Of a DNA stretch of 64,000 nt, positions 3,255 through 29,803 are shown piece after piece (the stretch's first letter is position 1; each line of letters opens with the position of its first letter). The notes under the pieces are model-generated. The model had not been told where the DNA came from and searched no databases. It saw only the letters and a program-made list of their open reading frames with translations. Source of the stretch: Hyphomicrobium aestuarii (lineage in GTDB: Bacteria; Pseudomonadota; Alphaproteobacteria; Rhizobiales; Hyphomicrobiaceae); contig JAWXCP010000039.1 in NCBI GenBank assembly GCA_034408685.1, positions 534 to 64,533 of the forward strand. The letters run 5' to 3'. The position numbers and the translations under genes were made by a program.

Positions 3255-3402
3255 TTGTCGGTTCGCGGTTTTGATCGAGCCTGGATTTGCTTTGACCGCA
3301 CCCGAATACGCTCGCGGTCTCGCTCGTCCATTGAACCTTTGTCGCGGTCGCAGCGACCAAGCCGATAGGAGTGAGATCAACCATTTCGAGGAGTCCGATG
3401 TT

Positions 3403-12852: not shown

Positions 12853-12892
12853 GTAGTGTAACGGTGGATCATAGGGCGTTTGGGCAATTGCG

Positions 12893-13552: not shown

Positions 13553-13560
13553 CGTCGCAA

Positions 13561-13610
13561 TTGACAGGTGGCGCGCGTTCAATGTAAATATTTTTGCGTG
13601 CGACGCAAAA
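13561..13610 (+). promoter_or_regulatory. Candidate sigma70-type promoter plus perfect palindromic operator in front of mgsA
   Basis: TTGACA (13561-66), an 18-nt spacer, then TAAATA (13585-90). Immediately downstream is the perfect inverted repeat ttttgcgt-gcg-acgcaaaa (13592-13610), 14 nt before the mgsA ATG. Confidence 0.45.
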
Positions 13611-13624
13611 TGGGTGCGCTTCCG

Positions 13625-14521
13625 ATGTGTGGAATTGTCGGTCTCTACTTAAAGGATACCAAGCTTGAGCCGCAGCTTGGCTCGCTGACGTCCGAAATGC
13701 TGGCCACGATGTGCGAACGCGGCCCCGATTCCGCAGGTTTTGCAGTCTACGGCGCGGCAGTCGAAGGGGAACTCAAGATCACGGTCCAGTCGGCGGACCC
13801 TGCCGCTGACTTCCCCGCGCTTGCCATGGCGGTAGAGGCGGAGTACGGGCGCCCGGTGCGCATCGACGAACGCGCGACACACGCGGTCGTCCATGTTCCT
13901 GCAGACGCGCTCGGCACAGTGAAAAACGTCGTTTCACAGCACTGTCCAACAATCCGGATCATGGGGATCGGCGAGGCCATCGAAATCTACAAGGAAGTCG
14001 GCTTGCCGACTGCCGTGGCATCTCGATTTGCGCTGTCTGAAATGTCCGGTACGCACGCGATCGGCCACACGCGAATGGCGACCGAATCTGCGGTGACAAC
14101 CAGCGGTGCGCATCCGTTCTCGACTGGTCTGGACCAGTGCCTCGTGCATAACGGTTCGCTGTCCAACCACCACAACTTGCGGCGCGTGCTCCACCGCGAG
14201 GGCATGAGTTTCCAGACCGACAACGACTCCGAGGTGGCCGCCGGCTATCTCTCCTGGCGCATGCAGCAGGGGCTCAACCTGCAACAAGCGCTCGAGAAAA
14301 GCCTCGATGATCTCGATGGTTTCTTTACGTTCGTGGTGGGTACGAAAACCGGCTTCGCAGTTCTGCGCGATCCCATCGCCTGCAAGCCAGCAGTCTTGGC
14401 TGAAACAGACAGTTACGTCGCCTTCGGCTCTGAATATCGCGCGTTGGCAGGCCTACCCGGCATCGAAGACGCCAAGGTCTGGGAGCCCGAACCGGCAACC
14501 GTCTACTTTTGGGGGCGCTGA
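13625..14521 (+). CDS. mgsA: N-methylglutamate synthase subunit A (class-II glutamine amidotransferase-like)
   Basis: Starts 'MCGIVGLY', giving an N-terminal nucleophile Cys after Met. GltB amidotransferase-type sequence. First gene of the mgsABC-gmaS-mgdABCD order. Confidence 0.85.
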   Translation: MCGIVGLYLKDTKLEPQLGSLTSEMLATMCERGPDSAGFAVYGAAVEGELKITVQSADPAADFPALAMAVEAEYGRPVRIDERATHAVVHVPADALGTVKNVVSQHCPTIRIMGIGEAIEIYKEVGLPTAVASRFALSEMSGTHAIGHTRMATESAVTTSGAHPFSTGLDQCLVHNGSLSNHHNLRRVLHREGMSFQTDNDSEVAAGYLSWRMQQGLNLQQALEKSLDDLDGFFTFVVGTKTGFAVLRDPIACKPAVLAETDSYVAFGSEYRALAGLPGIEDAKVWEPEPATVYFWGR

Positions 14522-14523
14522 GC

Positions 14524-15210
14524 ATGCCAACGCTCGACCTCGCACTATCTTCGTTGCGCGACCTGAACGGCGCGCTGCAAACCCATACGGACGGAAGCAA
14601 CGACACGGCTTTCGAGGTATTGAACCCCCGCGGTCAACATGCCGTCGCCGTGGGCGTGAACGCACCCGTCACCATCGATGTTCGAGGCAGTGTCGGCTAT
14701 TATTGTGGCGGCATGAACCAGCAAGCGCGCATCACGGTCCATGGCTCGGCTGGCCCCGGCGTTGGCGAGAACATGATGTCGGGCACTGTCACCGTGCGCG
14801 GTGATGCCAGCCAGTATGCCGGTGCGACAGGACGCGGTGGGCTGCTTGTCATCGATGGAAATGCCTCGTCACGCTGCGGCATCTCGATGAAAGGGATCGA
14901 CATTGTGGTGCGCGGCAACGTTGGCCACATGTCGGCCTTCATGGCGCAAGCCGGTAATCTCGTTGTGCTCGGCAACGCAGGAGAAGCGCTAGGCGACAGC
15001 ATTTATGAGGCACGATTGTTCGTGCGTGGCGACGTTACAAGCCTCGGGGCGGACTGCATCGAGAAAGACATGCGGCCTGAGCATCATGAGGCGCTTGCGC
15101 GTTTGCTAGACGATGCCGGTATCACCGGCGTCGCAACCACTGAGTTCCGTCGCTACGGATCAGCCCGGCGTCTTTATACTTTCAATATCGACAATGCGGA
15201 TGCCTACTGA
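14524..15210 (+). CDS. mgsB: N-methylglutamate synthase subunit B (GXGXG-repeat domain, GltB C-terminal-like)
   Basis: Repeated beta-helix motif 'VRGSVGYYCGG..ITVHGSAGPGVGE..VTVRGDASQYAGA..LVIDGNASSRCG..IVVRGNVGHMSA..LVVLGNAGEALG'. ATG at 14524, 2 nt after the mgsA stop. Confidence 0.85.
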   Translation: MPTLDLALSSLRDLNGALQTHTDGSNDTAFEVLNPRGQHAVAVGVNAPVTIDVRGSVGYYCGGMNQQARITVHGSAGPGVGENMMSGTVTVRGDASQYAGATGRGGLLVIDGNASSRCGISMKGIDIVVRGNVGHMSAFMAQAGNLVVLGNAGEALGDSIYEARLFVRGDVTSLGADCIEKDMRPEHHEALARLLDDAGITGVATTEFRRYGSARRLYTFNIDNADAY

Positions 15211-16538
15211 TGAGCTATCGCACGCCGCCGACCACGCCCCGCAAGTCCGCAACCTTCGACGATTACACGTTGTCGGAAATCCGCCGCGCGGCCGCAACTG
15301 GGATCTATGATATTCGTGGCGGCGGCGCAAAACGGCGCTTGCCCCACTTCGACGACCTGTTGTTCCTTGGCGCGTCGATGTCGCGATATCCGCTTGAAGG
15401 CTACCGGGAGAAGTGCGCCACCAACGTCGTGCTCGGCACCCGTCATGCCAAGACGCCGATCGAACTTAAGATCCCGATTACGATCGCTGGCATGAGCTTC
15501 GGCTCGCTATCGGCCAACGCCAAGGAAGCGCTTGGGCGCGGGGCAACGCTGTCTGGCACATCGACCACGACTGGTGATGGCGGCATGACGAACGAAGAAC
15601 GTCAACATTCACAGTTGCTGGTCTATCAGTATCTCCCATCGCGGTACGGCATGAATCCAGACGATCTTCGCCGCGCCGACGCCATCGAGGTCGTTGTCGG
15701 ACAAGGTGCCAAGCCAGGCGGTGGCGGCATGCTGCTTGGCCAAAAAATTTCCGACCGCGTGGCAGAGATGCGAACGCTCCCTAAAGGCATCGATCAGCGT
15801 TCGGCCTGCCGTCATCCCGATTGGACTGGCCCAGACGATCTTGAAATCAAGATTCTAGAGTTACGCGAGATCACCGGTTGGGAAAAGCCAATCTATGTCA
15901 AGATTGGAAGTTCGCGGCCTTACTATGATGTGGCGCTGGCCGTGAAGGCTGGCGCCGATGTCGTCGTCGTCGACGGCATGCAAGGCGGCACGGCGGCGAC
16001 CCAGGAAGTGTTTATCGAACACGTCGGCATTCCAACGCTTGGCTGCATTCGTCCAGCCGTGAAAGCGTTGCAGGACTTGGGGCTGCACCGCAAAGTGCAG
16101 CTCATCGTGTCAGGCGGCATTCGCTCGGGGGCCGATGTCGCTAAGGCGTTAGCGCTGGGGGCCGATGCGGTCTCGATCGGGACGGCCGCCTTGGTCGCGA
16201 TCGGTGACAACGATCCGCAGTACGAGGCCGAATACCAGCAACTTGGCACCACCGCTGGCGCCTACGACGACTGGCATGAAGGTCGCGACCCGGCCGGCAT
16301 CACAACGCAAGATCCCGTGCTGTCTCAGCGCCTCGATCCAGCGCGCGCCGGCCGCCTGCTGGCGAATTACCTCAAGGTGATGACGCTCGAAGCGCAGACG
16401 ATTGCGCGCGCCTGCGGTCATAACCACGTCCACAATCTCGAGCCGGAAGACCTGTGTGCCCTCACCATCGAGGCCGCCGCCATGGCGCACGTCCCGCTCG
16501 CTGGCACGACGTGGATACCGGGCACGGGTGGCTGCTAG
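15210..16538 (+). CDS. mgsC: N-methylglutamate synthase subunit C (FMN-dependent glutamate-synthase domain)
   Basis: GltB FMN-domain-like sequence ('GMSFGSLS', 'VVGQGAKPGGGGML', 'VVVDGMQGGTAAT', 'LIVSGGIRSGADVAKALALGADAV'). The ATG overlaps the mgsB stop (ATGA). Confidence 0.85.
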   Translation: MSYRTPPTTPRKSATFDDYTLSEIRRAAATGIYDIRGGGAKRRLPHFDDLLFLGASMSRYPLEGYREKCATNVVLGTRHAKTPIELKIPITIAGMSFGSLSANAKEALGRGATLSGTSTTTGDGGMTNEERQHSQLLVYQYLPSRYGMNPDDLRRADAIEVVVGQGAKPGGGGMLLGQKISDRVAEMRTLPKGIDQRSACRHPDWTGPDDLEIKILELREITGWEKPIYVKIGSSRPYYDVALAVKAGADVVVVDGMQGGTAATQEVFIEHVGIPTLGCIRPAVKALQDLGLHRKVQLIVSGGIRSGADVAKALALGADAVSIGTAALVAIGDNDPQYEAEYQQLGTTAGAYDDWHEGRDPAGITTQDPVLSQRLDPARAGRLLANYLKVMTLEAQTIARACGHNHVHNLEPEDLCALTIEAAAMAHVPLAGTTWIPGTGGC

Positions 16539-16595
16539 ATGCCGGATTGGTGGACGCGTTTTCAGTTGCGCCGCGAGCGGGAAAGAACCAGCGTA

Positions 16596-17903
16596 ATGAG
16601 CTTTGATCTGTCTGCAATCGCTAAAGAACGCGGCATTCGATACTTTCTGATTTCCTACACCGATCTGATGGGCGGCCAGCGCGCTAAGCTCGTGCCAACG
16701 TCCGCCATTTCAGACATGCAGAAAGACGGCGCGGGTTTCGCGGGTTTTGCCACGTGGCTCGATATGTCGCCCGCTGACCCCGATCTGCTGGCGATGCCCG
16801 ATGGTGCCGGCATGATCCAGTTGCCATGGAAAAGAGAGGTCGCGTGGCTCCCGGCCGATCTCACCATGGGCAATGCCCCGGTTGGTCAGGCCCCACGCGT
16901 CGTCCTGAAGCGCGCGGTCCAGTCGTTCGCCGAGCAAGGGCTCAGCTTGAAGTCTGGCGTCGAATGCGAGTTTTTTCTGATTAATGCCGACGGCAGCGCA
17001 ATCGCCGATGACAAGGATAATGCGGTCAAGCCGTGCTATGATCAGCAAGCGCTAATGCGCCGTTATGATGTGATCGCCGAGATTTGCGACTACATGTTGG
17101 AATTGGGTTGGGGCGCTTACCAGAACGACCACGAAGACGCTAACGGCCAGTTCGAAATGAATTGGCATTACGCCGACTGCCTCGTCACAGCCGACCGTCA
17201 TTCGTTCTTCAAGTTCATGGTCAAGTCGGTCGCCGAAAAGCATGGGCTAAGGGCGACCTTCATGCCCAAGCCGTTCTCCAACTTGACCGGCAATGGGTGC
17301 CACGTCCATGTCTCGGTCTGGGACCCAAGCGGTAATCGCAATTTGTTCGCCGATGACAGCAATGAGTTGGGTTTATCCGCCGGAGCCTACGCCTTTCTAG
17401 GCGGCATCCTGCGCCACGCGGGAGGCTTGGCTGGGATCACCAACCCCACAGTCAATTCCTACAAACGGATCAACGCGCCGCGCACCATTTCGGGCGCCAC
17501 CTGGTCGCCCAACACGGTCACCTGGACGGGAAACAACCGGACCCACATGGTCCGTGTGCCGGCTCCTGGCCGGTTCGAGATCCGGCTCCCCGACGGCGCT
17601 GCAAACCCGTATCTCTTGCAAGCCGCCCTGCTTTCGGCCGGTAGTACTGGCATGGCCACCAAGGCTGACCCCGGCCCGCGCTACGACATCGACATGTACG
17701 AGCAGGGCCATACCGTGAAGAATGCGCCAAAGCTTCCGCTCAACTTGCTTGACGCGATTCGTGGCTTTGAGCGCGACGAGGTATTGACGGGTGCGCTCGG
17801 GGCTGAATTCTCGAAGTCATACGTCAAGATGAAGACGATCGAGTGGAATGCCTACAGCGCGCATCTTTCGGAGTGGGAGCGGCAGAACACCCTCGATGTT
17901 TGA
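16596..17903 (+). CDS. gmaS: Gamma-glutamylmethylamide synthetase (glutamine-synthetase family)
   Basis: GS-family sequence ('IRYFLISYTDLMGGQRAKLVP', 'ECEFFL', 'NGCHVHVSVW', 'NSYKRI', 'VRVP....FEIRLPDGAANPYL') in the position gmaS holds in NMG clusters. The ATG at 16596 is preferred over the upstream in-frame ATG at 16539. Confidence 0.85.
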   Translation: MSFDLSAIAKERGIRYFLISYTDLMGGQRAKLVPTSAISDMQKDGAGFAGFATWLDMSPADPDLLAMPDGAGMIQLPWKREVAWLPADLTMGNAPVGQAPRVVLKRAVQSFAEQGLSLKSGVECEFFLINADGSAIADDKDNAVKPCYDQQALMRRYDVIAEICDYMLELGWGAYQNDHEDANGQFEMNWHYADCLVTADRHSFFKFMVKSVAEKHGLRATFMPKPFSNLTGNGCHVHVSVWDPSGNRNLFADDSNELGLSAGAYAFLGGILRHAGGLAGITNPTVNSYKRINAPRTISGATWSPNTVTWTGNNRTHMVRVPAPGRFEIRLPDGAANPYLLQAALLSAGSTGMATKADPGPRYDIDMYEQGHTVKNAPKLPLNLLDAIRGFERDEVLTGALGAEFSKSYVKMKTIEWNAYSAHLSEWERQNTLDV

Positions 17904-19161
17904 GCAATCCGATCGGTATTCTTTGTTCACCCTGTTGAGGGAGGGGCTGCGCGGACACACGGGTTGGCGTCCGGCGTGGCGCGACGCCGCCCCACAACCA
18001 GCCTACGATATTGTGATCGTCGGCGGTGGAGGCCACGGCCTGGCAACCGCTTACTATCTCGCCAAAACGTACAACCGAATCAAGATTGCCGTGGTCGAGA
18101 AAGGCTGGATCGGTGGCGGCAATGTCGGCCGAAACACCACGATCATTCGCTCTAATTACCTGCTGCCCGCCAACATTCCATTCTACGAAACGTCGCTCAA
18201 GCTGTGGGAAGGACTAGAACAAGACCTCAACTACAATGCGATGATCAGCCAGCGCGGCGTCGTGAACCTCTACCACTCCGATGCCCAGCGAGACGCTTAC
18301 GTCAGGCGCGGCAATGCCATCCTCATGCATGGCGCTGACGCTGAGCTCCTCGACGAGGCTGGCGTTCGCCGGATGCTGCCGTTTCTCGATTTCGACGGCG
18401 CGCGGTTTCCGATCACGGGCGCCTTGCTCCAGCGGCGAGGTGGGACCGTTCGGCACGATGCGGTCGCATGGGGCTACGCGCGCGCCGCCGATCGGCTCGG
18501 GGTCGACATCATACAAAATTGCGAAGTCACCGGTTTTCGGATCGAGGACGGCAAGGTCACGGGCCTCGATACCACGCGCGGACATATTGGAGCGGCCAAG
18601 GTCGGGCTGGCGTGTGCAGGGCGCACATCGCAGGTTGCGGCCATGGCGGGGCTTCGACTGCCGATCGAAAGCCACGCGTTGCAAGCCTTCGTCAGCGAAG
18701 CAATCAAACCGTTTATCGATACGGTCGTCACGTTTGGGGCCGGCCATTTCTATATCAGTCAGTCCGACAAAGGCGGGCTTGTGTTCGGTGGCGATATAGA
18801 AGGCTACAATAGTTACGCTTCACGTGGCAATCTGCCCGTGATCGAGGACGTATGCGAATGCGGTATGGCATTGATACCAAGTCTCGGTCGGCTGCGAATC
18901 GTGCGGCACTGGGGCGGCATCATGGATATGACCATGGACGGCAGCCCGATTATCGATCGCACACCCGTCGAAGGCCTCTATCTCAATGGCGGGTGGTGCT
19001 ACGGCGGCTTCAAGGCTACCCCGGCATCGGGACTTTGCTTTGCCCACCTGATCGCAACCGGCGAGCCGCACGCTGTCGCAAGCGCCTACCGGCTCGATCG
19101 CTTTGCAACTGGTCATCTGATCGACGAAAAAGGAATGGGGCCGCACCCGCAGCTCCATTAG
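17896..19161 (+). CDS. mgdA: N-methylglutamate dehydrogenase subunit A (sarcosine-oxidase beta-like FAD oxidoreductase)
   Basis: 'YDIVIVGGGGHGLATAYYLAK' dinucleotide fold with SoxB-like sequence. The ATG overlaps the gmaS stop (ATGTTTGA). Confidence 0.85.
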   Translation: MFEQSDRYSLFTLLREGLRGHTGWRPAWRDAAPQPAYDIVIVGGGGHGLATAYYLAKTYNRIKIAVVEKGWIGGGNVGRNTTIIRSNYLLPANIPFYETSLKLWEGLEQDLNYNAMISQRGVVNLYHSDAQRDAYVRRGNAILMHGADAELLDEAGVRRMLPFLDFDGARFPITGALLQRRGGTVRHDAVAWGYARAADRLGVDIIQNCEVTGFRIEDGKVTGLDTTRGHIGAAKVGLACAGRTSQVAAMAGLRLPIESHALQAFVSEAIKPFIDTVVTFGAGHFYISQSDKGGLVFGGDIEGYNSYASRGNLPVIEDVCECGMALIPSLGRLRIVRHWGGIMDMTMDGSPIIDRTPVEGLYLNGGWCYGGFKATPASGLCFAHLIATGEPHAVASAYRLDRFATGHLIDEKGMGPHPQLH

Positions 19162-19170
19162 TGACCCATC

Positions 19171-19479
19171 ATGCGCATTCCGTGTACTTACTGCGGCAAT
19201 CGACAATTGGACGAATTCACGTACTTCGGGGACGCGACCGTGCGTCGACCCGATTCCGAGGCGGCCGATGCCCTGCCAGCGTTCGTCTCGTACGTTTATG
19301 ATCGCACCAACCCGACCGGCCCACACCGTGAACTCTGGTACCATGGCCTAGGCTGCCGCCAATGGCTCGTTGTCACACGCGATATCACCACGCACGAAGT
19401 GTTAGGCGCGCAACCTGCCCGCGATGTTGCGAGCCGATCCGCGGTGAGCGCTAAGCCAGCAGAGGCTCCTGCGTCATGA
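19171..19479 (+). CDS. mgdB: N-methylglutamate dehydrogenase subunit B (sarcosine-oxidase delta-like)
   Basis: 102 aa, 'MRIPCTYCGNRQLDEFTYFGDA', a SoxD-type Cys motif. Its stop overlaps the mgdC start. Confidence 0.8.
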   Translation: MRIPCTYCGNRQLDEFTYFGDATVRRPDSEAADALPAFVSYVYDRTNPTGPHRELWYHGLGCRQWLVVTRDITTHEVLGAQPARDVASRSAVSAKPAEAPAS

Positions 19480-22454
19480 CCAGCCTCAGACGACCAACCG
19501 GCGGCGATATCGACCGCCAGACGACGTTGCGTTTCACGTTCGACGGCACGGAATACGCTGGCCACCCAGGCGATACGTTAGCGTCGGCCTTGCTGGCAAA
19601 CGGCGTGAAGCTTGTCGGCCGCTCGTTCAAATATCACCGCCCGCGCGGCGTCCTGACGGCCGGTTCTGAGGAACCCAACGCGCTTGTGGAATTGCGTCTC
19701 GGATCAGCCCGAGAACCAAACACACGTGCAACCGTCGTTGAACTTTATGACGGCCTCGACGCCCGAAGCCAGAACCGCTGGCCATCGCTCAAATACGACG
19801 CTCTTGCGATCAACTCGCTCGCGGCTCCGATGCTGGTTGCCGGTTTCTACTATAAAACCTTCATGTGGCCGGCCGCGTTCTGGGAGCGCGTCTACGAGCC
19901 GCTGATCCGCCGGGCTGCAGGTATGGGGCGGGCTGCCACGGAACCTGATCCTGACAGCTATGAGAAAGTTTCGGCTCACTGCGACGTGCTCATCGTCGGT
20001 GGCGGACCGGCGGGATTGAGCGCAGCGCTTGCCGCAGCCCGATCGGGCGCACGTGTGATCCTCGCCGACGAGGGGTTTCGGCTGGGCGGCCAGTCGGTGG
20101 CCAGTTCTGCCGCACTCGATAATGGTTCCGTGAGCGACTGGATCGCTCGCGCTGAAGCTGAGCTGCACGCATTGCCGAATAATCGGGTCTTGAAGCGAAC
20201 TACCGTCTTCGGTGTCTACGACAGCGCAACCTACGGCGCCGTTGAACGCGTCAGTGATCACCTGCCGACGCGGATGCCCGGTCACCCGCGACAACGATTG
20301 TGGAGGATCGTGGCGCGCCAAACGGTTCTCGCCTCCGGCGCAACCGAGCGCCCTATCGCGTTCGGCAACAATGACCTGCCAGGCGTGATGCTTGCCTCAG
20401 CGGTCAAAACCTACGTCGACCGGTTTGCCGTGCAAATCGGACAACAAGCGGTTGTTTTCACCAACAACAGCAGTGCGGCCTCGACCATCGCCGCGCTGCA
20501 TCGCGGCGGCGTCTCGATCGCAGCTATCGTCGATGCGCGACTGCAGCCCGACGCCAGCATCACGGCATCCGCACAAGCTGCGGGCGCGCCGCTCCTCGCC
20601 GGTGCGGAGGTGATCGACGCTCACGGCGGCTACGAACTCCGCGCGATCACGGTTCGTAGCCGTGAGGGTCGCTATCAAACCATGAACATCGACTGCGATC
20701 TGCTGGCCGTATCGGGTGGCTGGAACCCGAACCTTCAACTCACAACCCATCTTGGCGGGCGGCCGATCTGGAACGACACCATCGCGGCATTTGTCCCCGA
20801 CAAACTGCCACCGGGTATCTTGGTCGCTGGCGGTGCCGCGGGGCGCTATGATCTCACCGACGCCGTCGCCGATGGCCAACGCGCCGGTGCCCGGTCAGCA
20901 GAACTCTGCGGGTTAACAGCCGCGCTGCCAATCGACATCGATTCCGCGAACAACTATGCGATCGAGCCATTGTGGCGGGTCACAGGCGGCAAAGGTAAGG
21001 CCTTTGTCGATTTCCAGAACGACGTCACCGCCAAGGACATCGAAATCGCAAATCGCGAAGGCTTCAGTGCCGTCGAGCATCTGAAGCGCTACACCACGCT
21101 TGGGATGGCAACCGACCAGGGCAAGACGTCGGGCGTCGTCGGCATGGGCATCCTGGCCGAACACAGCGGCCGCACACTCGCCGAAACGGGCGTCACCGTC
21201 ATGCGTCCGCCGTACACGCCGGTGGCTATCGGCGCGCTCGCCGGCCACCACCGCGGCCCCGACTTCAAGCCGAAGCGCTTGCCGCCATCTTACGCCTGGG
21301 CTAGCGAACAGGGCGCCGTGTTCGTCGAAACCGGACTGTGGATGCGGCCCCAATACTTTCCAAAGCCCGGCGACAAAGACTGGCTGGATGCCGCCGTCCG
21401 CGAGGTGGCCGGGGTGCGCTCCGCTGTCGGCGTTTGCGACGTTTCGACTTTGGGCAAGATCGACATCCAGGGTGCGGACGCGGCGAAGTTTCTCGACGGC
21501 GTTTATGCAAATACGTTTTCAACGCTGCCCATCGGCCGCGCCCGTTACGGGATCATGCTGCGTGAAGACGGCTTCGTACTCGACGACGGCACGACGGCGC
21601 GCTTTGGGCCTCATCATTTCGTGATGACGACAACCACCGCCAATGCAGCCCGTGTGATGATGCACCTCGAATACTGCCATCAGTGGCTGTGGCCGCAGCT
21701 CGATGTCCGCATGGTGGCTGTCTCCGACCAATGGGCGCAGTATGCAGTCGCTGGTCCGCGTTCGCGAGAGCTGTTGGAGCGGATCGCCGATCCCGGCATT
21801 GACCTCTCGAATGCGGCGTTCTCTTACATGTCGGCTGCAGAAATCAGCATTTGCAGCGGCCTTACGGCCCGCCTCTTTCGATTGTCGTTCAGCGGTGAAC
21901 TCGCTTACGAGATCGCTGTTCCAGCGCGCTACGGCGATGACTTGATGCGCAGATTGATAAGCGCTGGAGCGACGCTGGGCGTCATGCCGTATGGGTCCGA
22001 AGCACTCGGTATCATGCGGATTGAAAAGGGGCATGCGGCGGGCGCCGAGCTCAACGGAACAACCACGGCGTCCGATCTCGGGCTCGGTGCGCTCGTCTCG
22101 ACTAAGAAAGACTGCATCGGCCGCGTGCTGTCAGGCCGCCCGGCGCTGGTAGCGCCGGATCGCCCGGTTCTGGTTGGCATCAAGCCGGACGACCCGTCCG
22201 AGCGATTGCGAGGTGGCGCCCATATGGTGCGGGTTGGAACCGCCGTCACAGCGGCCAATGACGAAGGTTACGTCACGTCGACCGCCTATTCGCCGACGCT
22301 GGGCCATTGGATCGGACTTGCTTTCCTAAAGAGCGGCCGCGACCGCCATGGCGAAAAGGTAATGGCCGCCAGCCCCATCCACGGCGAGAGCGTTACGGTC
22401 GAGGTCGTGCCGCCGGTCTTTGTCGACCCTCAAGGAGCCAGATTGCGTGGATAA
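19476..22454 (+). CDS. mgdC: N-methylglutamate dehydrogenase subunit C (sarcosine-oxidase alpha-like, aminomethyltransferase-fold C-terminus)
   Basis: 992 aa with a SoxA-like N-terminus ('FTFDGTEYAGHPGDTLASALLANGV', 'FKYHRPRG'), an FAD/NAD fold 'DVLIVGGGPAGLSAALAAA' and a GcvT-like C-terminal half. Confidence 0.85.
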   Translation: MTSLRRPTGGDIDRQTTLRFTFDGTEYAGHPGDTLASALLANGVKLVGRSFKYHRPRGVLTAGSEEPNALVELRLGSAREPNTRATVVELYDGLDARSQNRWPSLKYDALAINSLAAPMLVAGFYYKTFMWPAAFWERVYEPLIRRAAGMGRAATEPDPDSYEKVSAHCDVLIVGGGPAGLSAALAAARSGARVILADEGFRLGGQSVASSAALDNGSVSDWIARAEAELHALPNNRVLKRTTVFGVYDSATYGAVERVSDHLPTRMPGHPRQRLWRIVARQTVLASGATERPIAFGNNDLPGVMLASAVKTYVDRFAVQIGQQAVVFTNNSSAASTIAALHRGGVSIAAIVDARLQPDASITASAQAAGAPLLAGAEVIDAHGGYELRAITVRSREGRYQTMNIDCDLLAVSGGWNPNLQLTTHLGGRPIWNDTIAAFVPDKLPPGILVAGGAAGRYDLTDAVADGQRAGARSAELCGLTAALPIDIDSANNYAIEPLWRVTGGKGKAFVDFQNDVTAKDIEIANREGFSAVEHLKRYTTLGMATDQGKTSGVVGMGILAEHSGRTLAETGVTVMRPPYTPVAIGALAGHHRGPDFKPKRLPPSYAWASEQGAVFVETGLWMRPQYFPKPGDKDWLDAAVREVAGVRSAVGVCDVSTLGKIDIQGADAAKFLDGVYANTFSTLPIGRARYGIMLREDGFVLDDGTTARFGPHHFVMTTTTANAARVMMHLEYCHQWLWPQLDVRMVAVSDQWAQYAVAGPRSRELLERIADPGIDLSNAAFSYMSAAEISICSGLTARLFRLSFSGELAYEIAVPARYGDDLMRRLISAGATLGVMPYGSEALGIMRIEKGHAAGAELNGTTTASDLGLGALVSTKKDCIGRVLSGRPALVAPDRPVLVGIKPDDPSERLRGGAHMVRVGTAVTAANDEGYVTSTAYSPTLGHWIGLAFLKSGRDRHGEKVMAASPIHGESVTVEVVPPVFVDPQGARLRG

Positions 22455-22989
22455 TAGCACACTGGTCGCGCGCCCAGCGGTTGACGCAGCACGAGCGACG
22501 AAAAAAGTCGCGACATTGCCCGACCGCGCCATCGTTCAAATCGTTTGCGCGCCCGAATGCTGCTCTGACCTTCGCGGTCGAATATCGGCTAGCTTTGGTT
22601 GCGACCTCCCACAAAAACCAAGCCTCGTAGCAGGCAACGGCTTCGAGTTTGCTTGGACTGGTCCAGGCCGATGGATGGCCATCGGAGATGGCGCGCCAGA
22701 AACCTGCATGGCACAGCTTTCAACGGCGCTGGCGGATACGGCCTCACGCGTCGACGTATCCGATGCCTACGCGACGTTTCGCCTGAACGGACCCGACGCA
22801 ACGGGAGCTCTGATGAAGCTCGTTCCGATCGATCTTGAACCGTCAGCGTTCCCATCCAGCGCTGTCGCACTCACCCATATTGCTCACGTTGCCGTCATCA
22901 TTATGAAGCGAGGCCCCGGGCCGGTCTTCGACGTTTTGATCCCCCGCTCGTTCGCTGCGACCATAGTCGGTTGGATCGAACACGCCTGA
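22447..22989 (+). CDS. mgdD: N-methylglutamate dehydrogenase subunit D (sarcosine-oxidase gamma-like)
   Basis: Small SoxG-sized protein after the alpha subunit. The GTG at 22447 has AAGGAG 9 nt upstream. The ORF caller's 22420 start would overlap mgdC by 35 nt. Confidence 0.7.
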   Translation: MDNSTLVARPAVDAARATKKVATLPDRAIVQIVCAPECCSDLRGRISASFGCDLPQKPSLVAGNGFEFAWTGPGRWMAIGDGAPETCMAQLSTALADTASRVDVSDAYATFRLNGPDATGALMKLVPIDLEPSAFPSSAVALTHIAHVAVIIMKRGPGPVFDVLIPRSFAATIVGWIEHA

Positions 22990-23022
22990 ATATATCGGTG
23001 CAGAGTGTCAGAGCGGTGGGCA

Positions 23023-23970
23023 TCATTCGGGCGGTGTCTGGTCGTCAGGCGACCCCGACATCTCGACAACGACGATGTGCGGGACGGTCAAGGCACCGAG
23101 CGCCATGAAGATCGCCCCGATCAAGGCTGGCCCGGGCGGCAGTGTCGACAACGCGAACGCGCCCACAAGCGTCCCCATAATGGCCAAAGGGGCGTAAGGA
23201 AATGCGGCGCGGAAAAACTCATTGGCAGTTTGAGATCGAAGCAGGTGCCGCGTTTCGATCATGTGGCGTATGGAATGCAGCCCACAGAAGTAGATGAGAA
23301 AAAACATCATTGGGGGCGTCAGCCATGCGAGCCCCAGAACCACGGCTATTTCGGCAGCAGCCCATGGCCTTTGACGTGCGTGCAGCGCAACCACGACGGC
23401 ACTTGCCTGTAGCAATGGCACGGCCGTTGTCGCCATAACCAGCCCAACTGCGTTTGCGATTGCGTCCGGCGCCAGCCACGAGAAAATCTCGACGACCTCT
23501 GCGCGGAAAAGTCCCGCAGGCGCCGTGATCATCGCGGCGGCAACGATCAGCCGGGGCGCCAAGTTCAAGTCGCGGTGCCAATCGCCCGAAAAATGATAGA
23601 TCGACATCAAGAGAAAAACCGGAAGCGCGATGGCGGGCGCAACGAGCCAGAGGGTAAAGAAACCTGCCGCCAGGGCGATGTAACGAAGCAGCATCTCTGG
23701 GATGCCTCGCCCGCCACGATGGCCGCTTTTTGCCGTCCAAACGGCAACATCGAAAGCACCATGCGGAACGCCAAGTAGAAGAATGAGAAATCCGGTTATA
23801 ACTGGATAATCAAGAGGATTGAAAATATTTCCACGCAAGGCGAAGATCAAGATAATTAGCGTTGCAAGGACAAATGCGGCACGGTGCTCGCAATACGCTT
23901 GTGGCCTTAATTCATCGTCGCGCCCGAGTTCTTTGGACGTTTCGCAAGATAACGCTGTAACATTGGTCAT
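23023..23970 (-). CDS. blh: Brp/Blh-family beta-carotene 15,15'-dioxygenase (retinal synthase)
   Basis: Motifs 'LLLGVPHGAFDV', 'LLMSIYHFSGDW', 'FLIYFCGLHSIRH', i.e. four His on TM helices. The ATG at 23970 was chosen so the gene does not overlap the rhodopsin gene. 315 aa. Confidence 0.85.
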   Translation of the reverse strand: MTNVTALSCETSKELGRDDELRPQAYCEHRAAFVLATLIILIFALRGNIFNPLDYPVITGFLILLLGVPHGAFDVAVWTAKSGHRGGRGIPEMLLRYIALAAGFFTLWLVAPAIALPVFLLMSIYHFSGDWHRDLNLAPRLIVAAAMITAPAGLFRAEVVEIFSWLAPDAIANAVGLVMATTAVPLLQASAVVVALHARQRPWAAAEIAVVLGLAWLTPPMMFFLIYFCGLHSIRHMIETRHLLRSQTANEFFRAAFPYAPLAIMGTLVGAFALSTLPPGPALIGAIFMALGALTVPHIVVVEMSGSPDDQTPPE

Positions 23971-24071
23971 CACGTCGCCCAATTTCGCCAGCAACGGCAC
24001 ACGCGACTGCGGCTCCGGCGTTTTGCTGAAAGCTGATGGCGCCGATTGCGCCACCAGCCGCGTTGAGCCCC

Positions 24072-24860
24072 CTATAATGCCGGGGTCGGCACGCCAGTAC
24101 GAGTGGCCACGACCGTGCCGTGTTCTGCTGCCGATTTCCGTACCGCGATAGTATATATGACGACACCGAAGACGGCCTTCGCCACGATGTCGGCGACCGT
24201 ATAGCCAATTTCGACTGCGGTTGCCGCCGTGCCGCCCGTAAGTCCGATCATCGGGAAGACGAAGACCACCGGATAAAACGACCATGAGATGACGGTCAGC
24301 CAACGCGCTGTGTCCACCAGCCCACGGACGTCAGCTGGCTGCTTGGCGATCGCTTCGCCGAGACCAACGAACAATTCGTAGACGATCCAAGCAAACGGGA
24401 TCATGGCCAGTGCCCACCAAACCCAACGGGTCGTCGGATCGCCAGAAATTTCGCCAGGATAACCCAAGACGACCATTATGGCTGCAAGCAAACCGAGCCG
24501 CACGCCTTTCGACCATGTCTCTGAGCGCGACAGACCCATTACCAGAATGAGTTCGACAAGGAGAAGTGGCACGGTAAGCAACCAATCGACGTATCGATAG
24601 GCGTGGTTGAATGCAATGCCAGTAACCGCAATTTGTCCATTCACGACATCATAACTGGCATCCCAGCTCTGAAGAATTCTGACGTAATGATAAAGTGCGA
24701 TTGCCGTGACAAGACCTGTAATCGTAATTGCGGTCTTGTATCGATCACTGACTTGTGATCGGCCGAGCCAAAAGAATAAAGTGGCTGCGCCCATGGTTGC
24801 GATTGCGAACGAAAATGCATTATAGACGAGTTCGTATTGAAGTACAGAAACTTCGGCCAT
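24072..24860 (-). CDS. Microbial rhodopsin, xanthorhodopsin/Gloeobacter-rhodopsin-like, DTE motif (predicted outward proton pump)
   Basis: 'NHAYRYVDWLLTVPLLLVE' supplies D..T......E. 'YHYVRI' supplies the conserved His. The Schiff-base Lys sits in 'YTVADIVAKAVFG'. 'QYELVYNAFSFAIATMGAATLFFW' and 'GYPGEISGD' resemble GR/XR. The ATG at 24860 has AAGGAA 7 nt upstream. 262 aa. Confidence 0.9.
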   Translation of the reverse strand: MAEVSVLQYELVYNAFSFAIATMGAATLFFWLGRSQVSDRYKTAITITGLVTAIALYHYVRILQSWDASYDVVNGQIAVTGIAFNHAYRYVDWLLTVPLLLVELILVMGLSRSETWSKGVRLGLLAAIMVVLGYPGEISGDPTTRWVWWALAMIPFAWIVYELFVGLGEAIAKQPADVRGLVDTARWLTVISWSFYPVVFVFPMIGLTGGTAATAVEIGYTVADIVAKAVFGVVIYTIAVRKSAAEHGTVVATRTGVPTPAL

Positions 24861-25134
24861 GCGTGGTTCCTTACCGCCGCTTTCAACCATCCGGTTGGAG
24901 GGTTGTTGTTCTGAAGCCATTGCGCGTCGGACGTGGGGCATCCAGGCTCGGAAACTACCCAGTGATCCACTTCGGATCGCCGTCTAGACGGGCTGATCGG
25001 GTCACCGCGCGAAGGGCCCGCGCGACTTGATCGTAAATCCGGCAATACGCGACGTGAGTAGTTTCCGAACCTTCTGCCAGTGAACACTGCTGGCCATACG
25101 TAGGCGATCATTGAAGCGGCTCGGGGCTACTCCC

Positions 25135-25191
25135 GACCCGCCGGGCAATAGGCGACCCGCCGGGCAAGAGCCAACCCGCCGGGCAACAGGC
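25135..25191. repeat. Three head-to-tail 19-bp direct repeats in the rhodopsin / CheB-CheR-kinase divergent intergenic region
   Basis: gacccgccgggcaataggc / gacccgccgggcaagagcc / aacccgccgggcaacaggc. The 13-nt core acccgccgggcaa is identical in all three. A degenerate fourth start 'aactcgggt' follows. Confidence 0.85.
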
Positions 25192-25453
25192 AACTCGGGT
25201 GGAATTCTCACGGGGTGTGACCGGTTTCCGGCCGAACAGAAGAGAATGGGCATCTGAAAATCCGCATTTTGCAGATTGCGGCCTCCCCGCGCTGCGAAAC
25301 CGGAACGTGCAAGCCTATCCCGATCATGCCAAGCTTAACCTTGGAACCTTAAACACGCCGACCGATGAAGTTTCAGACACCGCTCCAGAACGGCGAATTC
25401 AGACCATTAGCACCAGCAGATGCCGAACCAGCGAGACCTAGGACGAGTGCCGG

Positions 25454-28400
25454 ATGATGGATGACTTCCTCGTCGTCGCGATCGGCGCCTCAGCTGGCGG
25501 GCTTGAAGCCTGCCGCAAGCTGCTCACAGCCATGCCAGCCCGGTCTGGGACGGCATTCATCGTCGTGCAGCATTTGGACCCCAACCACCCCAGCCTGATG
25601 GTCGACCTGCTCGCCTCTCATACGGACATGCCGGTCCAGCAGGCGACCGAAGGCATGCCGATCAAGCGGGACCATCTCTACGTCATACCGCCCGGTACAG
25701 AACTGTCGGTCGTTGGCGGTGCCCTTCACGTGACGCGACCCGGCCGTCCTCACGGCATGCGACTACCGTTTGATGCGCTGGTCAACTCGCTGGCGGGTGA
25801 GTTTGGAAAGCGCGTTGTCGTCGTATTGCTGTCGGGCACGGGAGCCGACGGCAGTACGGCGCTTCAAACCGTGAAGGCGGAGGTGGGTCTCGTCATCGCA
25901 CAAGATCCAGCCGAAGCGGCGTTCGATGGTATGCCACGCAGCGCCGTAGCTGCTGGCGTCGTCGATCTCGTCCTGCCGGTTGCCGAGATTCCGCACGCGA
26001 TCCTCGACTACGATAAACGAAGAGCCCCCACCGCGCCTGCTGGCGTGGGCGACACGCTCTCGTCCGTCGAAGCCCGTATGCCCGAAATCATCGAGGTGTT
26101 ACGCCAGCGGACCCCCCATGACTTCAGTGGCTACAAGCCAAGCTCATTGTTGCGGCGCATCGAGCGGCGGATGGCGGCCGTCACTGGCTGTGAAAACGAC
26201 GTCGATGGCTACCTCGCACGGCTCATGAGCGAGCCATCCGAACTCGAACATCTTGCCAACTACATTTTTGTCAATGTGACGCGGTTTTTCCGCGACGGCG
26301 ACGTTTTTGAGTTGCTGGCCAACACGGTCATCCCCGACATCGTCGCCCACCGGGTCGCCGATCAGACGCTTCGGATCTGGGTCGCTGGATGCAGCACCGG
26401 GGAGGAGGCCTACTCGCTGGTGATGCTGATCCTCGAACATACCACGCGGAGCGGTAGCCCATTTCAATTCCAGGTTTTCGCGTCCGATGCGGATGCAGAG
26501 GCGATCGCGTTTGCACGAGAGGGCTATTATCCCGAAAGCATCTCGGCCGACATTTCGCCAGAACGGCTCGCGCGCTTTTTCATCCGGGAAAAACAGGGCT
26601 ACCGCGTCTCGTCGGAGCTGCGCGGCGCCGTCATATTCGCCTGTCAGGACTTGCTCGTCGATCCGCCGTTCTCCCGCCTGGATATGGTCTCGTGCCGGAA
26701 CTTGTTGATCTACCTTGGCCACGACGCCCAGACCCGGGTCATCGACGTATTTCACTTCGCGCTTCGAGAAGGCGGCATTCTGCTGCTCGGCAATGCAGAA
26801 ACGATCGGTGCAACTGACGACCGTTTCGAGTCCATATTGGACTCGAGCAGAATTTACCGGCATGTGGCGCAATGCCGGCCGGGCGAGGTCCGTTTTGCGA
26901 TCGGCACGGAGGACGGCGCGCGTGGTCAACCACGCGCGTTACTCCCCGGAAAGCCCCGAATGCGCCCACTTGAGTTGGCTGAACTTTGCCGGCGCATGGT
27001 CATCGAGAATTTTGCGCCAGCCGCCGTACTGATCAATCATCGCCACGAGTGCCTGTATTCGGTCGGGCCAGTCGAGCGCTTCTTGCGTGTAGCTCCAGGG
27101 CACCCAACGCTTGATCTGCTCGATATGGCGCCGCAACCCATGCGCACACGCCTCAGGTTGGTCATCGCTCAGGCCACCGATACCCGTTCGCGCGCCCAAG
27201 TTAGCCGGCTCCGGATCAGCCAGGAGGACGGCGACATCGAGTTCGCGATCGAGGTCATACCGGGCCCCGACGACACTGAAAAATTGATGCTGGTATGCTT
27301 CAAAGAAGTGGCAAAGCACAGCAATCGTCCGCCATTGGGCGATGGGGAGACACCAGCAAATCCGACAGATCTTCCTCGCGTCGCAGCGCTTGAAATCGAA
27401 ATCGAGGCGACGCGGTCTGAGCTGCGGCACACCATCTTTGATCTCGAGCAATCGCGTGAAGAACAGAGGGCCATCAGCGAGGAGGCTTCTTCCGTTGCCG
27501 AAGAATACCAATCGACCAACGAAGAGCTCCTCACATCCAAGGAAGAGTTGCAGTCGCTGAACGAGGAACTTACGGCCCTCAATGGGCAGCTGCAGGAAAC
27601 TCTCGACCGTCAGAAAACGACTTCGGATTATTTGCAGAATATTCTCAATAGCACGGATATCGCGACGATATTCCTCGATGGTAAACTTCGTATCCGGTTC
27701 TTTACGCCCGCTACCAAGCAATTGTTCAGCGTTATTCCCAGCGATATCGGTCGCCCGCTTGGCGATCTCAGCTCGTTGTCTGCCGACAGCGCAGCGCTCG
27801 ATGACGCCCGGACCGTGCTCGAAACCCTTGTCCCGATGGATCGCGAGATCGAGATGCCGGACGGCGTCTGGTTCATGCGGCGCATCCAGCCCTACCGGAC
27901 CCACAACAATGGCATCGAGGGCGTTGTCATCACCTTTGACGATATCAGCCAGCGAAAGATCACAGCGGCAGCGTTGCAGGCGGCAAAAGAGCAGGCGCAG
28001 GCTGCCAATGCTGCCAAATCAAGGTTCCTCGCGGTCGCCAGCCATGATTTGCGGCAACCGTTGCAGTCGCTAGTGCTGATCCAGGGTTTGTTGGCCAAGC
28101 AGGTGACGGGAGACAAGCCGAAGCGGCTTTTGGATCGGCTTGATGAAACCTTGTCAGCAATGGCGGGGATGCTGAACACGTTGCTCGATATCAATCAAAT
28201 TGAAATCGGTGCTGTCGAGCCCGTTGTGGTCAATAGCCCGATCAATAGTTTGCTCGTGCAGATGCGCGATGAGTTTACATACCACGCGCATGCCAGGGGG
28301 CTCCAACTGCGGATCGTCGAGTCGAGCCTGACGGTCACCACCGATCCACGGCTGCTCGAACAGGTGCTGCGCAATCTTTTGTCCAACGCGATAAAATATA

Positions 28401-29803
28401 CCGAAAAAGGAAAAGTCGTCCTAGGCTGCCGCCGTCGGGCGGGTGTTGTCAGCGTCGAGGTTTGGGATAGCGGGATTGGAATACCGAAGACGGAGATCAA
28501 AAGTATCTTTGACGAATATTATCAGATTGGAAATGCAGCGCGTCAACGCAGCCAGGGTCTTGGTCTGGGACTATCCATCGTACAGCGATTGGCTCATCTG
28601 CTCAAGCACCGCATCGACGTGCGCTCGATGCCTGGCCGCGGGTCAGGCTTTGCTATCGAAATTCAGCATAAACCCGATCAGCCTGCGTCGATTGGGCATA
28701 TCCATATCGTCGCCGATGAACTGGGCGAGCCGGAGCCAAGCCACCGCAGGGCATTGATCCTCATCGTCGAGGACGACCCTGAGGTAGGCGACCTGCTTGA
28801 GGATTTTCTGGTCAACGAGGGCCATCAGGCTCTGATTGCAACCGGCGGCCCGGCTGCGGAACTGTTGATGTCGCGGACGGCGCTACAGCCCGACCTGTTG
28901 ATAACCGACTATAACTTGCCAGGCGGGATGAATGGCCTCGAACTGGCGGAGCGGGTGAGATCCCGCCTCGATCCGGCCTTTCCCATTATTGTTCTGACGG
29001 GCGACATTTCGTCAGCGACGCTTCGCAATATTGGTCAGAGCCGTTGCGTTCACGTCAACAAGCCTGTGAAAATCGATGACCTGTCCGCGATGATCCAGCG
29101 GTTGCTACGGCGCGATCAAGCCAGCAAGGTGCTGGTAGAGGGCGGGGAACCGGTTGTTCCGTTGCCCTCGGGGCCGTCGATGGTGTACGTTGTTGACGAT
29201 GACCGTCATGTCAGAGATCAGGTGCGCGAGGTGCTCGAGGACGGCGGGATGACAGTGGCCGACTTTGCTACGGCCGAGGCCTTTCTCGCAGCGTTCAAAC
29301 CCGGCGGCAGCGAGGCTTGTCTGCTGATCGATGCCTACCTGCCCGGCATGAGCGGTGTCGATGCGCTGATGCAACTCCGCCAAGCGCGCCATCGTCTACC
29401 CACCATCATGATGACAGGCTTCGGCGACGTCGGTATCGCGGTCGACGCAATGAAATCAGGCGCAATAGACTTTATCGAGAAGCCGGTGGCGCGCGGCGAA
29501 CTACTTGGCGCCATTTCGCGGGCACTGGGGATGTCGCGGGACCGCAACAAGTTGGAAGCGTGGCAGGCCGCTGCGGCTAGTCAACTTGCGGACCTGACAA
29601 GCCGACAACGTCAGATCATGGATCTTGTTCTCGCTGGCCATCCGAGCAAAAACATCGCGGCTGATCTCGGGATCAGCCAACGAACGGTCGAAAACCATCG
29701 CGCGGCAATCATGGAGCGGACCGGCGCGAAGTCGCTACCGGAATTGGCGCGGATTGCGGTGGCTGCAAATTTGGGGGATGCGGCAGACGGCGTTGTCAAA
29801 TAG
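25454..29803 (+). CDS. 1449-aa multidomain signalling protein: CheB methylesterase, CheR methyltransferase, coiled coil, PAS, HisKA/HATPase, REC, FixJ-type REC, LuxR HTH
   Basis: CheB: 'VVAIGASAGGLEA....FIVVQHLDP.H'. CheR: 'TRFFRD', 'RIWVAGCSTGEEAYSL', 'SCRNLLIYL'. PAS after a coiled coil. H-box 'SRFLAVASHDLRQPL' and G-boxes 'WDSGIGIP', 'GLGLGLSIV'. REC1 'LILIVEDDPEVG...ITDYNLPGGMNG'. REC2 'MVYVVDDDRHVR...LIDAYLPGMSG'. HTH 'LTSRQRQIMDLVLAGHPSKNIAADLGISQRTVENHRAAIM'. Confidence 0.9.
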   Translation: MMDDFLVVAIGASAGGLEACRKLLTAMPARSGTAFIVVQHLDPNHPSLMVDLLASHTDMPVQQATEGMPIKRDHLYVIPPGTELSVVGGALHVTRPGRPHGMRLPFDALVNSLAGEFGKRVVVVLLSGTGADGSTALQTVKAEVGLVIAQDPAEAAFDGMPRSAVAAGVVDLVLPVAEIPHAILDYDKRRAPTAPAGVGDTLSSVEARMPEIIEVLRQRTPHDFSGYKPSSLLRRIERRMAAVTGCENDVDGYLARLMSEPSELEHLANYIFVNVTRFFRDGDVFELLANTVIPDIVAHRVADQTLRIWVAGCSTGEEAYSLVMLILEHTTRSGSPFQFQVFASDADAEAIAFAREGYYPESISADISPERLARFFIREKQGYRVSSELRGAVIFACQDLLVDPPFSRLDMVSCRNLLIYLGHDAQTRVIDVFHFALREGGILLLGNAETIGATDDRFESILDSSRIYRHVAQCRPGEVRFAIGTEDGARGQPRALLPGKPRMRPLELAELCRRMVIENFAPAAVLINHRHECLYSVGPVERFLRVAPGHPTLDLLDMAPQPMRTRLRLVIAQATDTRSRAQVSRLRISQEDGDIEFAIEVIPGPDDTEKLMLVCFKEVAKHSNRPPLGDGETPANPTDLPRVAALEIEIEATRSELRHTIFDLEQSREEQRAISEEASSVAEEYQSTNEELLTSKEELQSLNEELTALNGQLQETLDRQKTTSDYLQNILNSTDIATIFLDGKLRIRFFTPATKQLFSVIPSDIGRPLGDLSSLSADSAALDDARTVLETLVPMDREIEMPDGVWFMRRIQPYRTHNNGIEGVVITFDDISQRKITAAALQAAKEQAQAANAAKSRFLAVASHDLRQPLQSLVLIQGLLAKQVTGDKPKRLLDRLDETLSAMAGMLNTLLDINQIEIGAVEPVVVNSPINSLLVQMRDEFTYHAHARGLQLRIVESSLTVTTDPRLLEQVLRNLLSNAIKYTEKGKVVLGCRRRAGVVSVEVWDSGIGIPKTEIKSIFDEYYQIGNAARQRSQGLGLGLSIVQRLAHLLKHRIDVRSMPGRGSGFAIEIQHKPDQPASIGHIHIVADELGEPEPSHRRALILIVEDDPEVGDLLEDFLVNEGHQALIATGGPAAELLMSRTALQPDLLITDYNLPGGMNGLELAERVRSRLDPAFPIIVLTGDISSATLRNIGQSRCVHVNKPVKIDDLSAMIQRLLRRDQASKVLVEGGEPVVPLPSGPSMVYVVDDDRHVRDQVREVLEDGGMTVADFATAEAFLAAFKPGGSEACLLIDAYLPGMSGVDALMQLRQARHRLPTIMMTGFGDVGIAVDAMKSGAIDFIEKPVARGELLGAISRALGMSRDRNKLEAWQAAAASQLADLTSRQRQIMDLVLAGHPSKNIAADLGISQRTVENHRAAIMERTGAKSLPELARIAVAANLGDAADGVVK

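Follow-up and report, generated by a model that had tools for sequence, protein, structure and literature searches.

A stretch of 64,000 nt of Hyphomicrobium aestuarii DNA (contig JAWXCP010000039.1, positions 534 to 64,533 of the forward strand; referred to below, in its full length, as the window) carries an opsin gene followed by blh, a gene for a putative beta-carotene 15,15'-dioxygenase. Very probably, the two genes make up a minimal rhodopsin phototrophy module in an H. aestuarii-like methylotroph, built on a non-fenestrated proton pump that resembles subgroup II of the xanthorhodopsins. Hyphomicrobium is a methylamine-using bacterium of soil and water, and the genus has been regarded as exclusively chemotrophic, living by methylotrophy and denitrification. 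The module and the signals next to it are as follows:

24072-24860, minus strand: opsin gene, 262 aa, xanthorhodopsin family (subgroup II-like), from Pfam, PDB alignments and motif columns in homologues
24867-24872, minus strand: Shine-Dalgarno-like AAGGAA, 6 nt 5' of the opsin ATG, read from the sequence
23971-24071, minus strand: opsin-blh spacer, 101 nt, from the opsin stop to the blh ATG
23023-23970, minus strand: blh, 315 aa, Brp/Blh beta-carotene 15,15'-dioxygenase, from TIGR03753, Pfam BCD and conserved His residues

The 262-aa opsin has seven hydrophobic segments and matches the Pfam family PF01036 (Bac_rhodopsin) over profile positions 7-221 of 224 (3e-43; 148.3 bits against a cut-off of 24.6). 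A longer open reading frame (ORF) of 289 aa, starting at 24941, was dropped: the alignments of homologues begin at residue 1-3 of the 262-aa form, and it is the start of this form that AAGGAA precedes. Among structures in the PDB, the best matches of the opsin, all over the full length, are psXR (9wfa, 1.5e-73), Gloeobacter rhodopsin (GR; 6nwd, 4.9e-73), Salinibacter xanthorhodopsin (XR; 3ddl, 9e-70) and Kin4B8 (7ytb, 2.7e-63). In a phmmer search of the same database, chains of the XR family scored 203-251 bits and a further one, 9hfk, 171 bits, while proteorhodopsins (PR) stayed at ~100 bits or less (~1e-28) and bacteriorhodopsin (BR) at ~63 bits (~1e-16). Judged by these similarities, the window opsin is nearer to the XR/GR type than to PR-, BR- or NQ-type rhodopsins.

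To place the protein among its relatives, we used a protein search that returned 6015 proteins at E<=1e-20, the nearest 120 of which (70-100% identity) were aligned, and a genome scan that confirmed relatives in at least 581 stretches, from which 80 loci were kept for the neighbourhood, tree and motif counts. Residue roles were read from printed pairwise alignments to GR and XR and from the two multiple alignments (120 proteins; 80 loci):

H58: His partner of the counterion, helix B (aligns with GR H87)
R89: Arg corresponding to R82 of BR (identified by the conserved AYRYVDW motif)
D92: Asp counterion, helix C (aligns with GR D121)
T96: Thr of the Asp-Thr-Glu (DTE) motif (aligns with GR T125)
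L100: proteorhodopsin tuning position 105
E103: carboxylate proton donor (aligns with GR E132)
W149: opposite the antenna-admitting Gly (XR G156, GR G178, Kin4B8 G153)
D224: Asp four residues ahead of the Lys (DxxxK), helix G (GR D253 / XR D236)
K228: Schiff-base Lys, helix G (GR K257 / XR K240)

Across all 120 nearest proteins and all 80 loci there is no variation in the columns of H, D, T, L, E, D and K, and all seven residues are present in the window opsin. A preliminary description of this DNA had already picked out the D-T-E residues, the partner His, the Schiff-base Lys and the tuning Leu, and each of them is matched exactly in the alignments to 6nwd, 3ddl, 7ytb and 9wfa. Its view that the protein should be an outward proton-pump rhodopsin of the xanthorhodopsin family is likewise supported by the Pfam match, the PDB alignments and the motif columns of the relatives. 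By analogy with Octadecabacter XR and GR, absorption at ~530-545 nm would be predicted.

The label "Gloeobacter-type" that the same description had attached to the opsin did not survive comparison. The protein is ~48% identical to GR and XR and falls into a separate clade, the signature of which matches subgroup II xanthorhodopsins; in the neighbour-joining tree of the 80 loci, XR, GR, psXR and Kin4B8 all lie outside the whole clade, at ~47-49% identity to the window opsin. The division of xanthorhodopsins into two subgroups was introduced by Vollmers et al. (2013; PLoS One 8:e63422; PMC3646047). Subgroup I comprises the proteins of Salinibacter and Gloeobacter and the actinorhodopsins, all with Gly156, while most members of subgroup II have Trp156 and all of them differ at XR positions 160, 194, 197, 198, 201 and 205 (PMC3646047). 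At these six positions the window opsin has M, W, V, I, S and V. Four of the six, which XR, GR, psXR and Kin4B8 uniformly occupy with T160, L197, G201 and I205, are thereby substituted (T160M, L197V, G201S, I205V), and by its signature residues the window opsin fits the description of subgroup II.

Trp149 of the window opsin stands opposite Gly in 4/4 references (XR, GR, Kin4B8, psXR), as had been suggested before. Bulky residues at position 156 have been cited to abolish carotenoid binding in XR and GR (PMC3646047; 10.1101/2022.08.24.505090), and Kin4B8 loses carotenoid binding upon the substitution G153F (Chazan et al., preprint, 10.1101/2022.08.24.505090). Because of the Trp at the fenestration position and this literature, no antenna is expected, and we take the window opsin to be probably free of a carotenoid antenna. 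The Trp is not a peculiarity of the window protein, as the preliminary description had presented it: it is the rule in the clade, being found at XR position 156 in 118/120 nearest proteins and in 64/80 loci, with Gly in the remaining 16/80. Environmental XRs mostly have Trp, Phe or Gly at the fenestration position, with ~55% Gly (10.1101/2022.08.24.505090). The Trp has also been published for methylotrophs, namely for the xantho-like rhodopsins of 'Ca. Methylopumilus' and OM43, in which the change from Gly to Trp at position 156 was held to make an antenna unlikely (Salcher et al., 2019; ISME J 13:2764; PMC6794327). Horizontal gain of these methylotroph rhodopsins from lineages such as Massilia psychrophila was proposed in the same study (PMC6794327); the M. 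psychrophila protein is included among our loci (L030), has the Trp, is 70% identical to the window opsin and belongs to the same clade.

A dual-chromophore xanthorhodopsin in the strict sense, with a bound carotenoid antenna in spite of Trp149, would be in line with the family membership of the window opsin and with the Gly forms among the 80 loci, which are basal within the clade. We regard this as extremely unlikely in view of the Trp, of the four slot positions on helices E and F that differ from all four references, and of the effect of bulky substitutions in XR, GR and Kin4B8. Moreover, even Octadecabacter subgroup II proteins with Gly failed to bind salinixanthin (PMC3646047). Subgroup II proteins of Octadecabacter absorb at 533-535 nm and acidify the medium in the light, with no binding of salinixanthin (PMC3646047), which is the behaviour one would predict for the non-fenestrated pump favoured here.

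The second gene of the module belongs to the Brp/Blh family with full-length coverage of TIGR03753 (148.3 bits, cut-off 95.25) and a match to Pfam BCD (PF15461) at 8e-35. Among the putative iron ligands, H70 (in GVPHG) and H126 (in YHFSGDW) are conserved in 100% of 56 orthologues, and H232 and H236 of the GLHSIRH motif in 98% and 93%, respectively; a fifth His, H298 (in TVPH), is also present in 100%. The enzyme is predicted to cleave beta-carotene into two molecules of all-trans-retinal. Public gene calls for blh give 343, 315 or 223 aa, the model deposited in GenBank being that of 315 aa, the start of which coincides with the starts of Hyphomicrobiaceae orthologues; the ~60 residues that this form has N-terminal to the Blh domain are likewise found in these orthologues. 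The 223-aa call was rejected, as it would lose GVPHG, the first His motif, together with ~30 residues of the domain. A start at GTG 24054, 18 nt past the opsin stop, would give 343 aa and is conceivable, but it finds no support in the N-termini of relatives. The 101-nt spacer contains no terminator-like site, and co-transcription of opsin and blh is therefore likely; a comparably short spacing is found in Hyphomicrobiaceae relatives. In the preliminary description, the Blh-type dioxygenase on the same strand, 101 bp 3' of the opsin, had been taken to form one module with it, and ORFs, TIGR03753 and the orthologue alignment agree with this.

In the mechanism that we propose, Blh would act on beta-carotene, either made elsewhere in the genome or scavenged, and release all-trans-retinal, which would form a protonated Schiff base with Lys228 of the opsin. 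Upon isomerisation of the retinal by green light, a proton would pass to the Asp92/His58 counterion complex and from there to the outside, whereupon Glu103 would reprotonate the Schiff base from the cytoplasm, and the resulting proton-motive force would supplement respiration. Since Trp149 is predicted to fill the fenestration through which XR, GR and Kin4B8 admit the carotenoid ring, the pump should work with retinal alone, and the altered helix-E/F surface would also exclude an antenna.

Neither gene is new to the databases. Proteins identical to the opsin and to Blh have been deposited from a metagenome-assembled genome (MAG) of Hyphomicrobium aestuarii as MDZ4841047.1 ('bacteriorhodopsin-like') and MDZ4841046.1 ('Brp/Blh family beta-carotene 15,15'-dioxygenase', 315 aa). 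Among the matches listed, the closest opsins are from Filomicrobium sp. MED665 (83%), an uncultured Hyphomicrobiales bacterium (82%) and Hyphomicrobiaceae MAGs (71-76%), while the hosts span Alpha-, Beta- and Gammaproteobacteria, Acidobacteria, Gemmatimonadota, Verrucomicrobia and Armatimonadota. The module in the window is thus unremarkable: it belongs to a widespread class that has been published, and its genes had been annotated before. We found no published report of a rhodopsin in Hyphomicrobium in a literature that was judged largely by title and abstract. Three loci with an opsin of this clade bear unexpected host labels, namely MAGs of 'Candidatus Gracilibacteria' (L062), 'Klebsiella pneumoniae' (L052) and 'Bordetella parapertussis' (L078), which may reflect mis-binning or mislabelled MAG taxonomy. 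In PLSDB, plasmid-borne relatives occur only on megaplasmids of Polymorphobacter sp. PAMC 29334 and P. megasporae (NZ_CP080242.1 and NZ_CP081849.1; 61% identity), which are 0.84-0.91 Mb in size, non-mobilizable and from lichen isolates.

We then considered the composition of the module. The preliminary description had counted G+C by hand in single lines and reported values mostly between 40 and 50%. The direction of the deviation was confirmed, and the opsin is still an outlier when computed; the hand counts were too low overall, even if some single lines do go down to 33-43%, and the deviation is modest. The G+C content is 53.6% for the opsin, 57.0% for blh and 60.9% for the window, with single 60-nt lines spanning 33-68%, and the opsin value lies within the lowest 0.3% of windows of equal length. 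At third codon positions (GC3), the opsin has 0.574, the lowest of 36 ORFs, and blh 0.620, compared with a mean over the 36 ORFs of 0.699 (standard deviation 0.054). By synonymous codon fit over the same ORFs, blh (z -2.13) and the opsin (z -1.95) are the second and third least host-like. Opsins in 76 related loci have a G+C content that is, in the mean, 4.0 points below that of their flanks (standard deviation 3.2), so that a part of the deficit is intrinsic to the protein. Regression on host G+C over these 76 loci still leaves the window opsin 13 points low in GC3 (z -2.5), and the opsin of Filomicrobium MED665 has 53.7% G+C in flanks of 52%. These values are compatible with a fairly recent transfer from a relative of lower G+C. 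Horizontal acquisition, which the preliminary description had considered plausible, remains so on the evidence of GC3, codon use, the comparison with MED665 and the end of synteny at the mgdD stop described below.

The Blh proteins of six of the closest relatives (L006-L009, L012 and L058) are 42-48% identical to that of the window, and elsewhere the identity is 24-36%. Since the loci with the closest opsins also hold the most similar Blh, the opsin-blh pair appears to have been inherited or transferred as a unit. The unit was probably acquired from a Hyphomicrobiaceae member of lower G+C, for example a Filomicrobium-like one. Co-transcription, the direction of this transfer and any physiological benefit are points that we infer.

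On its blh side, the module adjoins a cluster of methylamine genes:

12866-22989, plus strand: helix-turn-helix (HTH)/cupin regulator and N-methylglutamate (NMG) cluster, a neighbour outside the module (Pfam, NCBIfam)
13568-22989, plus strand: mgsABC, gmaS and mgdABCD of the N-methylglutamate pathway (Pfam, NCBIfam)

The products of the NMG genes are, in order, GATase_6/7, GXGXG, Glu_synthase, a type III GS-like protein (TIGR03105, 658 bits), and soxB-, soxD-, soxA- and soxG-like proteins. The start of mgdD, the soxG-like gene (22420-22989, plus strand), is ambiguous: its longest ORF shares 35 nt with mgdC, the length in public gene calls is 104, 180 or 189 aa, and the protein is poorly conserved (52-80% identity to relatives). 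The blh and mgdD genes are convergent, and recomputing the distance between their stops gave 33 bp, in agreement with the value in the preliminary description; there is no terminator-like site in this gap. From this proximity a functional tie of the rhodopsin to methylamine oxidation had been proposed, a claim that our comparisons do not sustain. Within 10 kb of the opsin, mgdC, mgdD and gmaS are all absent from each of the 80 related loci. A search with MgdD gave 4 database matches at E<=1e-10 and one with MgdC gave congeners, and in four sets of NMG-cluster relatives other genes follow mgdD, an ABC transporter in one set and phosphatase, waaA, lpxK, xseA and purD in the others. Neither the 80 opsin loci nor these four sets show a conserved linkage of opsin and NMG genes.

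The extent of the NMG block was defined by comparison with Hyphomicrobium sp. GCA_002928955.1 (L091), which aligns at 80% nucleotide identity over 12866-22989, up to and including the final base of the stop codon of mgdD. The synteny spans only the HTH/cupin regulator and the NMG cluster, and none of the genes downstream of mgdD in L091 is present in the window. This comparison covers the downstream flank, the L091 contig ending on the upstream side, and the insertion boundary is set against this 80% relative only, since the 6-kb contig of a relative with 92% identity ends inside mgdD. Possibly the NMG block is itself able to relocate as a unit.

Coupling of the rhodopsin to NMG metabolism, by co-regulation or as a dedicated energy supply for one-carbon (C1) assimilation, could draw on the 33 bp between the two stops and on the known methylotrophs with xantho-like rhodopsins (PMC6794327). 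We nevertheless judge it very unlikely: convergent orientation means that opsin/blh and the NMG genes cannot share a transcript, NMG neighbours are missing from all 80 loci, and both the different genes after mgdD in the four sets of relatives and the end of the 80% synteny at its stop speak against it. As far as gene order can tell, the adjacency is a lineage-specific accident of genome arrangement, with no operonic or regulatory link. General photoheterotrophy of the host is plausible.

On its other side, the opsin gene is divergent from a gene for a large signalling protein:

24861-25453: divergent intergenic region, 593 bp, between the opsin and the hybrid kinase gene, presumed site of the opsin promoter
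24944-24961 and 25055-25072: inverted repeat with arms of 18 nt that are 89% complementary and separated by 93 nt, in what is presumed to be the 5' leader of the opsin
25136-25148, 25155-25167 and 25174-25186, minus strand: TTGCCCGGCGGGT three times in tandem without mismatch, period 19 nt
25454-29803, plus strand: 1449-aa CheB-CheR-PAS-HisKA-HATPase-REC-REC-LuxR hybrid (Pfam), divergent from the opsin

The 13-nt repeat TTGCCCGGCGGGT has no further perfect copy in the window, and in the other loci that were fetched it occurs perfectly only in same-species contigs (L001-L005) and as a single isolated copy in L054. The array may serve as a binding site for a regulator. No match to a sigma-70-like promoter was found upstream of the opsin in 24861-25453, and no Rfam match in 22900-25500. 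A 230-nt opsin leader folds at -87.9 kcal/mol, slightly better than shuffled sequences (z -2.06).

This arrangement raises the question of whether the opsin might be a sensory photoreceptor that signals to the adjacent CheB/CheR-PAS-histidine kinase-LuxR hybrid and not a pump, since it divergently adjoins a 1449-aa signalling protein across a 593-bp region with three perfect 13-nt repeats. The residues of the protein are pump-typical, however, with the carboxylate donor E103 in the DTE motif and a counterion pair of His and Asp; a transducer-like gene is lacking, tested members of the family pump protons, and, apart from weak matches to receiver domains, the kinase is not found next to the opsin in any of the 80 related loci. 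A sensory role is for these reasons highly improbable. A bolder extension of the pump reading would have Hyphomicrobium as a facultative photoheterotroph that supplies its opsin-blh pair with unlinked or exogenous carotene, controls it at the TTGCCCGGCGGGT repeats through the adjacent kinase-LuxR protein and gains in growth or survival on C1 amines; taken as a whole, this scenario seems quite unlikely.

Several points weigh against the two-gene pump module, or against its recent arrival, and should be set beside the evidence above. Proton pumping, retinal binding and colour of the window opsin are predicted by homology. The subgroup II assignment was made from signature residues and from a neighbour-joining tree that contained no Octadecabacter or OM43 sequences. 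The total-G+C deficit of the opsin amounts to only ~1.5 standard deviations once the clade-wide ~4 points are allowed for, there are no tRNA genes in the window and no integrase or transposase among the annotated neighbours to mark an island, and the synteny break at mgdD could equally mean that the NMG cluster moved and not the opsin module. Lastly, tblastn at E<=0.01 finds no crtE, crtI, crtB or crtY homologue in the 64-kb window, as had been noted before; the queries were CrtE, CrtI, CrtB and CrtY from a Bradyrhizobium-like locus, with their Pfam identities checked.

The last point bears on whether the module, intact as it is, might be idle: in a host unable to make beta-carotene, Blh would lack its substrate and the opsin its chromophore, unless retinal or carotene was scavenged. 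In many other hosts of the clade, the genes after the opsin are crtE-crtI-crtB-crtY-blh or crtY-blh, and the codon use of the window genes is atypical for their host, both of which would agree with an idle module. We think this unlikely nonetheless, given that the catalytic residues of opsin and Blh are all intact and that the identical opsin protein is found on contigs of five independent assemblies or samples. Furthermore, at least six Hyphomicrobiaceae/Hyphomicrobiales relatives (L006, L008, L009, L012, L016 and L058) keep a crt-less opsin-blh pair, which argues for maintenance together with an unlinked carotenoid pathway, and unlinked crt genes are known in hosts of subgroup I such as Salinibacter (PMC3646047). 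A functional pump module, fed by beta-carotene that is made elsewhere in the genome or scavenged, is the reading we prefer.

Two of the loci with close opsins deserve separate mention. L006 has no crt genes near its opsin. L007, from an uncultured Hyphomicrobiales MAG (opsin 82%), has no crtEIBY either; upstream, at 1333-4619, it has an Amino_oxidase-family desaturase-like gene (26% to CrtI) and an O-methyltransferase gene with a dimerisation domain, a pair reminiscent of the crtD/crtF-like genes of purple bacteria, and an N/X run lies inside its opsin-blh junction.

With this module, Hyphomicrobium, and Hyphomicrobiaceae more broadly, would join the long list of heterotrophs with rhodopsin-based light capture, and the locus would be a further example of an opsin-blh unit moving between lineages. 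Ecologically, light could modestly lift the energy yield of methylamine-using Hyphomicrobium in lit habitats. The picture of rhodopsin mechanism, antenna binding and C1 metabolism is unchanged: the class has been published, as have the Trp that blocks its fenestration and its presence in methylotrophs, and the genes are correctly annotated in GenBank.

Compared with known systems, the Blh of the window is a regular member of the Brp/Blh family (TIGR03753 / PF15461), like it in full-length match and conserved His residues and with no notable difference from it. With green-absorbing proteorhodopsin (GPR), the window opsin would share its physiology, that of a retinal-only, green-tuned (Leu105), Blh-supplied outward pump, and it also has in common with GPR a bulky residue at the fenestration position, which is Phe in GPR. 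It differs in the much weaker similarity (~1e-28 vs 1e-73 for the XR family) and in that GPR comes with a crtEIBY-blh operon vs no linked crt genes here. GR, XR, Kin4B8 and psXR have the same pump residues and the same N-terminal and helix layout as the window opsin; they are fenestrated and antenna-binding, with Gly and T160/L197/G201/I205, as opposed to Trp149 and M/V/S/V in the window protein. The closest parallel is with subgroup II xanthorhodopsins, among them the xantho-like rhodopsins of Octadecabacter, Massilia psychrophila, 'Ca. Methylopumilus' and OM43, which share the DTE motif, the His-Asp pair, the tuning-site Leu, Trp156 and the altered residues of the carotenoid slot, and which are likewise tied to retinal-synthesis genes and to horizontal spread. 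The differences are that subgroup II has been described with a conserved crtEIBY-blh cluster, while the window has blh alone, and that the host in the present case is Hyphomicrobium.

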